From positions 3,058 to 67,057 of the forward strand of contig CACBBE010000002.1 of the NCBI GenBank assembly GCA_902537395.1: DNA of 64,000 nucleotides. Reading direction: 5' to 3'. The first letter of the stretch is position 1; every line of letters starts with the position of its first letter. Origin of the DNA: an uncultured Synechococcaceae cyanobacterium (GTDB lineage: Bacteria > Cyanobacteriota > Cyanobacteriia > PCC-6307 > Cyanobiaceae). The notes under the pieces were generated by a model. The model saw nothing but the letters and a program-made list of their open reading frames with translations. It searched no databases and was not told the DNA's origin. Positions 46,424 to 48,259 of the stretch are shown here, piece after piece. The position numbers and the translations under genes were made by a program.

Positions 46424-46501
46424 TTTAATTTATGGTTGCTTAGTTAAAACATAACAACTATTGGAAGTTATCGTCAGAACTAAAAATAAATAATTAAATA
46501 G

Positions 46502-46587
46502 TGGGAGTGGGGGGACTTGAACCCCCACGAGCTAAATCGCTCGACGGATTTTAAGTCCGGCGCGTCTACCAATTCCGCCACACTCCC
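46502..46587 (-). tRNA. trnL: tRNA-Leu(UAA), intron-less, CCA not encoded
   Basis: Minus strand GGGAGTGTGGCGGAATTGGTAGACGCGCCGGACTTAAAATCCGTCGAGCGATTTAGCTCGTGGGGGTTCAAGTCCCCCCACTCCCA: 7-bp acceptor stem, long variable arm, TTC loop, anticodon TAA at 46551-46553. Confidence 0.97.
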
Positions 46588-46662
46588 AAAGGAATTTGCG
46601 CTTACTAATCGTAGCTGAAAGTATCCCATTTAACCAAGAAAAATTGGAAAATTTACACTTTT
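46553..46662. repeat. Direct repeat copy A (5' half of tRNA-Leu plus ~75 bp upstream)
   Basis: Ungapped match to 48150-48259, 13 mismatches in 110 bp by manual count; first 22 bp identical. Confidence 0.95.
46608..46613 (-). promoter_or_regulatory. Putative -10 element (TACGAT) of the tRNA-Leu promoter
   Basis: TAnnnT hexamer about 20 nt upstream of the mature tRNA 5' end; inferred from position only. Confidence 0.45.
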
Positions 46663-46681
46663 CGGGAAACAGTAGACACGC

Positions 46682-46710
46682 TGGATAACCATATTATTTA
46701 TAAATATAAT
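46682..46710 (+). promoter_or_regulatory. Putative sigma-70 promoter of the islet gene
   Basis: TGGATA-N17-TATAAT, with palindrome TATTTATAAATA (46695-46706) overlapping the -10; AT-rich context weakens this. Confidence 0.35.
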
Positions 46711-46761: not shown

Positions 46762-47997
46762 ATGATGATTATGAAGAAATTATTATTTACATCATTAATT
46801 AGTTCAACAATTTTTTTTGGTGCAAATTCAGCAAAAGCCGATTGGGATTATTGGGCAGTAAAAACTCCACCCAAGGGAGATGGGAATGGAGATGGAATAG
46901 CAGATACAAATTTTTGGGATTTATATACAATAAATAGCTCAAGAGAATCTGCGACATTTATTAAAAGATTCTGTATGAATGACAATGAAAGTTGTGCAAC
47001 AAATTTTGGCTATCCTATTTGGAATAAAGTGGATTATTCAATAAATGATAAAAATCATTCTATAGATAAAAACACTATTATTCTTAAGGTGAAAGATGCT
47101 GATTCCGGTACTTATAAGCAATATAAATATTCTTTAAGTGGAGGCACTTTTAGTAGGGGAGAGGAAGTAACAGTTTCTCCTACTGATGAGACTTTAGGCA
47201 TAGCACCTGAAGAAGTAGCACAGTGGTATGATAGCTACTCTTACTATGGAAATAGAGAAAATAACGCGATTATAAGAGAGTACGGTAATGTCAACGCAAG
47301 ATTTGGGGAAACAATAATAAGTCAAGAAGGGGTAATTATTGACGGGGATCCACTTATTACTAAAAAAGACAATGGAGAAATTCATATTGGTAAAAATTCA
47401 TTAATAACCAAAGAGGAGGATGGAGTGCAGAAACTTTATGCTCAAGATGAAAATGGTAATGCAATAAATATCGATGTAAGTAAAGGAACTAAATTATTAA
47501 TAAACGGAAGAGATGTGGAGCAATCAATTAATAATGTTGGAGCATTGAGTGCTGCCTTAACAGGTTTACCAACGGTTCCTTCTGATACAACCCTTGCTTG
47601 TGGTTTAGGAACTGGAACTCATGGAGGTGATTTTGCTTTTTCGGGTGGGTGCGCTTCTAGGTTAAATGAAAAACTCTCAATTAACTATGCTGCATCGACG
47701 ATAATGCCAGGGCAAGATTATGTAGGTGATTTTGAAGATACTTTTTCTGCGAGGGCTGGGTTTGTATGGAAGTTAGGAAAATCTATAAAACCCACTCAGA
47801 TTTCAATCAACCAGAAAAAAGATATGGATCTAAAAATATCTAAACTTGAAAAAAATAATGAAGAATTAAAGACTAAGAATAATGAAATCATTTCTCAAAA
47901 TGCAAAACTTCTTGAAAGATTAGAGAAATTAGAAAATATTGCTTTTAAGTTTCAAACAAATGCGGAAATTAAGTTATCAAAAGAATTCCAAGAATAA
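46762..47997 (+). CDS. Secreted YadA-like (trimeric autotransporter anchor) surface protein with a C-terminal coiled-coil tail
   Basis: Signal peptide MKKLLF...AKA|DW (start may be 46771). Anchor-like VEQSINNVGALSAALTGLP..LACGLGTGTHGGDFAFSGG..RLNEKLSINYAAS..ARAGFVWKLG at 47515-47778, followed by heptad repeats. Confidence 0.72.
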   Translation: MMIMKKLLFTSLISSTIFFGANSAKADWDYWAVKTPPKGDGNGDGIADTNFWDLYTINSSRESATFIKRFCMNDNESCATNFGYPIWNKVDYSINDKNHSIDKNTIILKVKDADSGTYKQYKYSLSGGTFSRGEEVTVSPTDETLGIAPEEVAQWYDSYSYYGNRENNAIIREYGNVNARFGETIISQEGVIIDGDPLITKKDNGEIHIGKNSLITKEEDGVQKLYAQDENGNAINIDVSKGTKLLINGRDVEQSINNVGALSAALTGLPTVPSDTTLACGLGTGTHGGDFAFSGGCASRLNEKLSINYAASTIMPGQDYVGDFEDTFSARAGFVWKLGKSIKPTQISINQKKDMDLKISKLEKNNEELKTKNNEIISQNAKLLERLEKLENIAFKFQTNAEIKLSKEFQE

Positions 47998-48144
47998 ATG
48001 AATTTGGGATTTTCACTCCTCAGACCGAGCTAGATATATGTTGGATAATCCTACCAATGTGGATAGTTTATAAATTAAGAAAGAGAATGAGTTTTCACCT
48101 AATCCCTATATATGCTGTACTTAATATATTCATAATTCGGTTTG

Positions 48145-48184
48145 TTTTAAAGTCCGGCGCGTCTACCAATTTTGCCATACTCCC
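48145..48184 (-). pseudogene. Decayed 5' half of tRNA-Leu(UAA)
   Basis: GGGAGTATGGCAAAATTGGTAGACGCGCCGGACTTTAAAA: G7A, G12A, G13A and one extra base in the anticodon loop; no 3' half follows. Confidence 0.9.
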
Positions 48185-48259
48185 AAAAGAATTAGCGCTT
48201 TCTAAGCGTAGCTGAAATTAACCCATTCAACAAAGAAAAATTGGAATATTTAGACTTTT
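48150..48259. repeat. Direct repeat copy B
   Basis: About 88% identical to 46553-46662; ends 24 bp from the pyrC stop codon. Confidence 0.95.

Follow-up and report, generated by a model that had tools for sequence, protein, structure and literature searches.

What does a gene that stands alone between tRNA-Leu and pyrC encode, and how did it come to lie there? We analysed a stretch of 64,000 nucleotides (nt) of cyanobacterial DNA, hereafter the window (GC content 31%; source assembly 61% complete), in which, by names read from translations, trpA is followed by two small genes, tRNA-Leu, the open reading frame (ORF) under study, pyrC and dnaA. The ORF is intact on inspection of its translation, and a homolog search found 1219 proteins, of which the 120 listed underlie all per-homolog figures given below. 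Because the listed homologs begin with MKKL, the true start is probably the third Met, at 46771, which gives a product of 408 aa. Gene order, GC content and one homolog with the NCBI name 'YadA C-terminal domain-containing protein [Prochlorococcus sp.]' assign the window to Prochlorococcus, and its gene likely encodes a three-chain surface adhesin. On balance, we read the locus as a probable tailed trimeric autotransporter adhesin (TAA) that stands alone in an integrase-less cassette, probably inserted at tRNA-Leu by the integrase of a T7-like cyanophage (Table 1).

Table 1. Features of the tRNA-Leu cassette and of the protein that it encodes (window coordinates).
Feature	Position	Strand	Remarks
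tRNA-Leu(TAA), intact; attB of T7-like cyanophages	46501..46587	-	ARAGORN, Rfam; attB role from PMC8776855
Left copy of 114-nt direct repeat	46549..46662		tRNA 5′ half from the anticodon loop plus about 75 nt of host-like upstream DNA
Distal motif X (GTAGACACGCTGGATA)	46672..46687	+	also closes the arm of P-SSP7 attP on the integrase side
Trimeric autotransporter gene with C-terminal coiled-coil extension	46762..47997	+	411 aa
Sec-type signal peptide, aa 1-26	46762..46839	+	AKA before D27; sequence pattern and homolog conservation
Hypervariable head, aa 27-165	46840..47256	+	beta-meanders that look like two propeller blades; Cys pair C71/C78
Conserved beta-stranded stalk/neck, aa 170-249	47269..47508	+	chains interlock here in the trimer model
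YadA-type anchor, aa 250-339, helix and four strands	47509..47778	+	Pfam; folds like Hia, YadA and AtaA
72-aa C-terminal tail; coiled coil aa 349-399; RhxxhE at aa 386-391	47779..47994	+	probably periplasmic
Phage-type attP arm, RNA-polymerase side of P-SSP7 attP	48027..48145		starts with the second GCTAGATA motif copy
Right copy of 114-nt repeat, 88% identical	48146..48259		partial tRNA-Leu and the host's original upstream DNA

As sequence anatomy, the cassette is real: it measures 1597 bp, and the autotransporter gene is the sole ORF between the repeats, with no integrase, RNA polymerase or structural phage gene beside it. The tRNA part of the left repeat includes an att core of about 40 nt, and the first 48 nt of this repeat match the attP of phage P-SSP7 at 95.8%; the right repeat runs on as empty-site sequence before pyrC. 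Adjoining the right repeat is a 120-nt element that, together with the core, matches P-SSP7 over 158 nt (80%, E 1e-29) in the gap between int and the RNA polymerase gene, and P-SSP7 attP has been reported from experiments to drive integration at tRNA-Leu (PMC8776855). Motif X is a candidate arm-type site for the integrase, coincides in part with a weak -35-like hexamer and lies 124 nt from the core start in the window versus 122 nt in phages. P-SSP7 Int found no match in the source genome as assembled (61% complete), Rfam identified no RNA family besides tRNA in the 120-nt element, and promoter and terminator scans did not rise above shuffled sequences and missed a degenerate hairpin in the arm (48082-48107), after which the minus strand has a T-run. 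This hairpin folds at -5.8 kcal/mol in the window versus -14.7 kcal/mol in P-SSP7, and the window's right core stands at 90%; since arm, hairpin and right core are all degenerate, the window's copy of the cassette may be immobile. In most intact copies, the hairpin folds at least as well on the minus strand (in this comparison, 3 of the 18 sequences had the hairpin stretch misplaced, and the arm alignment used those 22 of its 26 rows that had the right orientation), and it may halt transcription running on from the orphaned tRNA promoter. The preliminary description of this gene, made from the sequence of the window, did not mention the phage-attachment-site cassette around it.

A search of 60 genomes yielded 20 loci for comparison, 12 picked for a second repeat copy and 8 for a single copy. 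The gap between the tRNA and pyrC was just 100-104 nt in 6 of the 8 single-copy loci (6/20 overall), and the others hold unrelated inserts, whose products include PspC, MORN, DUF3721, DUF805, TPR and beta-barrel proteins as well as unknowns (Pfam family for 7 of 14 insert products). The phage arm itself occurs at 28 places in 27 of 285 genomes of the genus, every time at the same tRNA-Leu; these comprise 23 cassettes of 636-1597 bp, one empty 250-bp cassette, one prophage end and three unmeasured places. About one genus genome in ten holds the P-SSP7 attachment arm beside a small non-phage cargo. The cargoes are mostly unrelated to each other, a TAA fills the tRNA-Leu cassette in 5 of the 27 arm genomes and in a sixth genome (G121), and P-SSP7 Int had no match in the 28 cassette loci. 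By a strict pattern, 13 of 24 measured cassettes have motif X at +122 to +125, counted from the core, and most of the others have a degenerate version; the motif is absent at all seven empty sites and stands at +122 in all 18 phage loci that are long enough. Among 24 viral contigs retrieved with a pattern made from the arm, 19 are T7-like and combine RNA polymerase, arm and core.

With both attP ends and no phage gene, the cassette would be a non-autonomous passenger of a phage integrase: an infecting phage would supply the enzyme in trans, and the cassette would then move. That this cassette was mobilized by an integrase is, judged from its sequence, a substantial possibility somewhat short of probable, and the conserved motif spacing, a tandem insertion with a phage-like left arm in genome G304 and two cargo pairs closer than their flanks would fit it. 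More tentatively, we propose that Prochlorococcus has a family of such minimal, integrase-less cassettes with both attP ends, which borrow the integrase of podophages that infect the cell and are otherwise lytic; the enzyme would cut out one or two genes for the cell surface, hypervariable TAAs included, and insert them at tRNA-Leu. A serious rival, which we hold to be possible and rather doubtful, is that the cassettes are fixed scars: a prophage would have been lost between its two GCTAGATA repeats, and cargo genes would later have entered the site and been exchanged by host homologous recombination, the integrase having no further role. An empty 250-bp cassette with the two motifs merged (L128) and a real prophage end carrying the same arm (L113) speak for a scar, as do right cores and hairpins that are degenerate in several copies and cargo identity that often tracks host identity. 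A scar, however, predicts a phage-type left arm, whereas in most cassettes this arm is host-like for 75 nt and then reaches motif X at near-phage spacing; moreover, the phage arm keeps 76-93% identity to P-SSP7 along its matched stretch next to numerous unrelated cargoes, and the G304 tandem insertion needs a second integration. Comparison of cargo with host sequence gave results of both kinds: cargo was more alike than the flanking pyrC in two clear pairs (94.8 vs 89.2% and 95.1 vs 89.4%), and in most of 14 pairs cargo identity tracked or fell below pyrC identity. No excised circle junction was identified in four sequencing runs; a joint from 48076 to 46547 may be phage attP or the right end of another cassette and is therefore no circle evidence.

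Several individual loci illustrate the range of arrangements at this site. In the empty 250-bp cassette (L128/L107, G130:C6:35508-35617), motif X leads straight into the phage arm and the locus looks as if two GCTAGATA repeats had recombined. The prophage end (L113:2270-10514, G109:C41) is that of a T7-like phage at tRNA-Leu, on a contig that ends inside the phage; its RNA polymerase gene, 91% identical to P-SSP7 over the part tested, directly abuts the attP arm, followed by ORFs resembling SSB, endonuclease, primase/helicase and DNA polymerase, and the locus may show a transient integration captured in one cell. Two cassettes lie in tandem in G304 (L114, G304:C1:15500-21000), the first with a TAA and the second with two unknown genes and a left arm that matches P-SSP7 at 93% identity along 53 nt. 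A cassette of 636-639 bp recurs in six genomes (L129, L134, L138, L140, L141 and L144) with a 63-aa PspC-domain membrane protein as its sole cargo, and pyrC is just about 80% identical in some of these genomes. Two further tRNA-Leu inserts, one with two beta-barrel genes (L036) and one with a TPR gene (L030), have ends without a match to the P-SSP7 arm and are possibly cassettes of another attP group.

Among known elements, the P-SSP7 attP/integrase module, as presented in PMC8776855, shares with the window the tRNA-Leu core, an RNA-polymerase-side arm that is 77-80% identical and the same distal motif (+122 in the phage, +124 in the window). Unlike that module, the window's cassette has no phage gene, is 1.6 kb long and has a host-like left arm, and cassettes of its type carry a host surface gene and are stably present in genomes. 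An integrated T7-like prophage shares the attP-derived junctions at tRNA-Leu with the window but differs in the phage genes between them. Tycheposons are likewise cargo insertions between a full and a partial tRNA in Prochlorococcus; as described by Hackl et al. (bioRxiv 10.1101/2020.12.28.424599), however, they bring an integrase with them and insert at one of seven target tRNAs (Pro, Ser, Ala, Thr, Arg, Met and tmRNA), whereas the window's cassette has no integrase and sits at tRNA-Leu(TAA), and 'Leu' does not occur in the main text of that report. Window-type cassettes are also smaller than tycheposons and have phage attP arms. A search of openly readable literature found no description of such tRNA-Leu cassettes, and integrase-less cassettes with attP ends are apparently undescribed. 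The role of T7-like cyanophage integration was left open in PMC8776855, as no lysogens form. If phage integrase moves the cassettes, lytic phages would deliver single surface genes to their hosts, by a route distinct from tycheposons and as a lasting consequence of transient integration. Metagenomic counts of host-phage junctions at tRNA-Leu may include such cassettes.

The encoded protein begins with what appears by inspection to be a Sec signal peptide (a basic n-region, a hydrophobic h-region and AKA before D27), conserved among the listed homologs, and would be exported via Sec. Pfam gave a single match, YadA_anchor (PF03895) at aa 270-336 (E 8e-5), whose score of 23.1 bits lies just 0.4 bits above the cut-off of 22.7; all 120 listed homologs match the same family at E<=0.01, and YadA head repeats occur in 9 of them. 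In NCBIfam, the window protein had no match and three homologs had sub-threshold TAA matches, while a PDB sequence search with the family profile returned one chance-level match only. Two cysteines of the anchor, C280 and C297 in strands 1 and 2, are invariant in the 120 listed homologs and were found in both anchor subfamilies from genome loci (71 of 73 rows, a list that includes 3 duplicates, 1 unrelated match and 1 row that the pattern missed). The pair sits on adjacent strands (window 47599-47652) and likely forms a cross-strand disulfide; we know of no disulfide inside a TAA barrel.

Structure prediction points the same way. The monomer model (mean pLDDT 66.7; anchor pLDDT 50-60) consists, in its C-terminal part, of a helix at 252-268, strands at 278-287, 290-300, 305-315 and 328-336, and a helix at 349-399. 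The best fold matches of aa 244-339 among 48,161 chains were TAA anchors: Hia (3emo, Z 7.0, rmsd 3.8, 82 aligned; 2gr8, Z 6.8, rmsd 3.0, 77 aligned), AtaA (Z 6.1) and YadA (Z 5.7), with every fold Z below 8; Foldseek named the same anchors with probability 1.0 and weak E-values. Three copies of aa 170-411 gave a trimer model with a score of 0.89, versus 0.00 for the best of three controls, with contact agreement of at least 91% and pLDDT of at least 82 across runs. In calibration, 20 of 30 solved pairs and 1 of 23 single chains attained the mark set for this score; to three copies modelled from a custom alignment, such figures apply only roughly, and since solved TAA anchors exist, the pass may reflect likeness to anchors that the predictor already knew. 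In the model, strand 4 (328-343) contacts strand 1 (273-289) of the neighbouring chain; the barrel and the side of the tail were taken from contact lists rather than coordinates. That the protein is a trimeric autotransporter of type Vc whose coiled coil lies in the periplasm is very probable. The preliminary description had proposed a Sec signal peptide and a YadA-anchor pattern, quoting four motifs, and had expected a Pfam anchor match and a 12-stranded homotrimeric barrel; the motifs are all present in the translation, the signal peptide and the anchor were borne out as described above, and the trimer agrees with expectation at the level of prediction.

The protein does not end with the barrel, whose fold in aa 244-339 it has in common with canonical type Vc proteins (Haemophilus Hia, Yersinia YadA and Acinetobacter AtaA). 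Those proteins end at the last barrel strand, whereas the window protein runs 72 aa further, and where some canonical adhesins use separate helpers (SadB, TpgA), its tail is built in. The count of 72 residues after FVWKLG (ending at G339) is exact, and all 120 listed homologs likewise have a tail, which extends 59 to 110 residues beyond the aromatic residue of the last strand. Heptad a positions are occupied by I359, N366, N373, N380 and L387 and d positions by L362, L369, I376, L383 and L390. Between the barrel end and a conserved tail motif lie 33, 40, 47, 54, 61 or 68 residues, spacings that are identical modulo 7 in all 119 of the 120 listed homologs in which the motif was located. The motif RhxxhE occurs in the tails of 115 of the 120 listed homologs versus 1.2% of shuffled tails; in the window it spans R386-E391 in a g-a-d-e register, with E391 invariant. 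Contacts of the tail in the trimer model recur every 3-4 residues over 351-397, and the four-strand anchor topology, which is established knowledge, places the tail in the periplasm. Asn at a combined with Leu at d is a dimer-favouring pattern, and the window tail has three Asn at a with Leu at d. RhxxhE is reported as a determinant of parallel trimers, with exceptions that include some dimers (PMC3653964). Taken together, the tail coiled coil likely trimerizes in the periplasm.

Tails of this kind have precedents. A coiled-coil or SLH domain follows the anchor in all Veillonella TAAs, and post-anchor domains also occur in TAAs of Synergistetes and Fusobacteria (Béchon 2020, PMC7549365); they were counted in 1508 of 12394 TAAs, about 12%, and in 92.5% of Synechococcus TAAs (Dorison 2026, bioRxiv 10.64898/2026.01.22.700529). 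According to the latter report, deletion of the Veillonella coiled coil, even in part, abolished function through degradation, a protein with a deleted SLH-type tail still trimerized and reached the surface, and short coiled-coil tails did not act as peptidoglycan binders; its authors suggest that tails compensate for missing BAM lipoproteins. By analogy with these tail-stability data, which come from Veillonella only, the main job of the window's tail is probably to stabilize the trimer. It is improbable that the tail serves mainly to tether the outer membrane to the peptidoglycan layer or to bind a partner in the periplasm: its last 15-30 residues after RhxxhE, conserved within site-specific lineages, could be a binding end and the tail is Lys-rich, but Pfam matched no SLH or OmpA domain in the window protein or the 120 listed homologs, tail length ranges from 56 to more than 100 residues, and a Veillonella coiled-coil tail failed to reproduce peptidoglycan-dependent localization in the account of Dorison 2026. 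Of the built-in periplasmic trimerization or tethering module that the preliminary description had seen in these 72 residues, trimerization is thus upheld by the trimer model, RhxxhE and the heptads, which were described as clear and which do exceed chance, whereas tethering found no support. Its further suggestion of a distinct type Vc architecture is not supported, as the design was already in print (Béchon 2020; Dorison 2026).

The window protein is a further member of this described coiled-coil-tailed TAA subtype. Like the short-coiled-coil TAAs of Veillonella (VtaA, VtaE and VtaF), Synechococcus, Synergistia and Fusobacteriia, it has a signal peptide, a passenger, a YadA anchor and then a coiled coil predicted to form a three-helix bundle, and its 72-aa tail fits the short-tail class of Dorison 2026 (>10 and <100 aa, mainly coiled coil, no SLH or OmpA). 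It differs from them in its passenger, which measures about 225 aa and has neither head nor stalk repeats of the YadA kind, in the invariant anchor Cys pair and in a long loop between strands 3 and 4; the tails of Synechococcus are called long by Dorison 2026, whereas those of the window family are short. 'Prochlorococcus' is absent from the main text of that report, the supplements of which may list the genus, and a literature search showed no study of this Prochlorococcus or picocyanobacterial TAA family among the papers that it listed. Coiled-coil-tailed autotransporters are hereby extended to a common mosaic accessory family of a streamlined planktonic cyanobacterium.

It is highly improbable that the protein is a phage fibre or another virion protein left by a prophage: the gene is located at a phage attachment site, T4-like cyanophages have structural proteins with a 'YadA domain' (PMC9146016) and the beta stalk bears a faint likeness to the prisms of phage spikes (3pqh, Z 4.5, rmsd 4.6, 53 aligned), but the protein has a signal peptide and a membrane anchor, tblastn found no match in 50,697 phage records, no PHROG family was assigned to it, and its homologs lie in host chromosomes, mostly beside argJ. 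A better match to a phage fibre, which the preliminary description had named as an outcome that would count against an autotransporter, likewise did not emerge from a BFVD fold search (no match at E<=0.001), and PDB matches of the passenger stayed below Z 6. A viral-contig search for the protein, in which one of four candidate stretches passed, returned 0 loci.

For the preferred reading as a type Vc autotransporter, assembly may be pictured as follows. Sec would export the chain, and three chains contributing four strands each would form a 12-stranded outer-membrane barrel by way of the host Omp85/BamA, as is known for the family and in agreement with the model contacts. A short beta stalk would then display the variable head, and the tail would zip into a parallel trimer starting at RhxxhE to give a three-helix bundle in the periplasm, where, as suggested by Veillonella, it may shield the assembly from degradation when BAM is without lipoproteins. 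Omp85 was found in the source genome, and BamD/YfiO had no match in this assembly (61% complete).

The head is the most variable part of the protein. By median identity to the listed homologs, the anchor (90%) is the best conserved part, ahead of the neck (59%), the tail (46%) and the head (34%); the head could be aligned in just 52 of 119 listed homologs and has only one close relative. A passenger-only model of the head (pLDDT about 80) gave weak matches to propeller blades (Z<=5.8), an Atlas search with the head gave nothing usable, and Foldseek propeller matches obtained from the whole-protein model (TM 0.1) were rejected as meaningless. In some trimeric lectins, a six-bladed propeller is closed by three chains, and three heads of the window protein might do the same, an idea that concerns a region outside the trimer model (aa 170-411, without the head). 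To judge from sequence, heads appear to have been exchanged on a conserved anchor; such swapping likely diversifies the cell surface, and the variable heads are candidate contacts for phage, grazers or particles.

Across genomes, the proteins form a mosaic accessory family that roughly one in four of the 285 genus genomes carries. Matches to anchor and tail occur in 83 of these genomes (74 at E<=2.2e-15), 70 of 401 genomes of the taxonomic family match, spread over 16 of 42 genera, and a whole-protein search of 24 genomes outside this taxonomic family found none. A bias to incomplete genomes, suggested by 2 of 13 genus genomes at >=90% completeness, was ruled out: 31 of 92 genus genomes at >=90% completeness match, or 25 of 92 versus 49 of 193 once nine genomes with a best E >1e-10 are dropped. 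Four of these weak matches, when fetched, proved to be unrelated genes. In two metatranscriptomes, contigs cover anchor and some passenger DNA; contigs of this kind cannot show transcription.

Family genes occupy three recurring sites, argJ, tRNA-Pro and tRNA-Leu, and the final residues of the tail track the genomic site. At the main site, argJ, tandem arrays hold one to four TAAs with different heads (L076, L077, L082 and L086), and the source genome has one argJ paralog of 408 aa. The argJ arrays contain no partial tRNA and no att DNA, and their repeats are coding anchor sequence and short intergenic matches only. That the majority of family members lie at argJ, away from att DNA, weighs against the reading of the cassette as integrase-delivered. 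In one array, three tandem 99-bp repeats that are 96-97% identical directly follow a TAA gene (L077:3606-3924). tRNA-Pro is also a tycheposon target (bioRxiv 10.1101/2020.12.28.424599). A third TAA lineage adjoins tRNA-Pro(TGG) in seven loci (L006, L010, L017, L047, L048, L050 and L051) and has its own tail ending.
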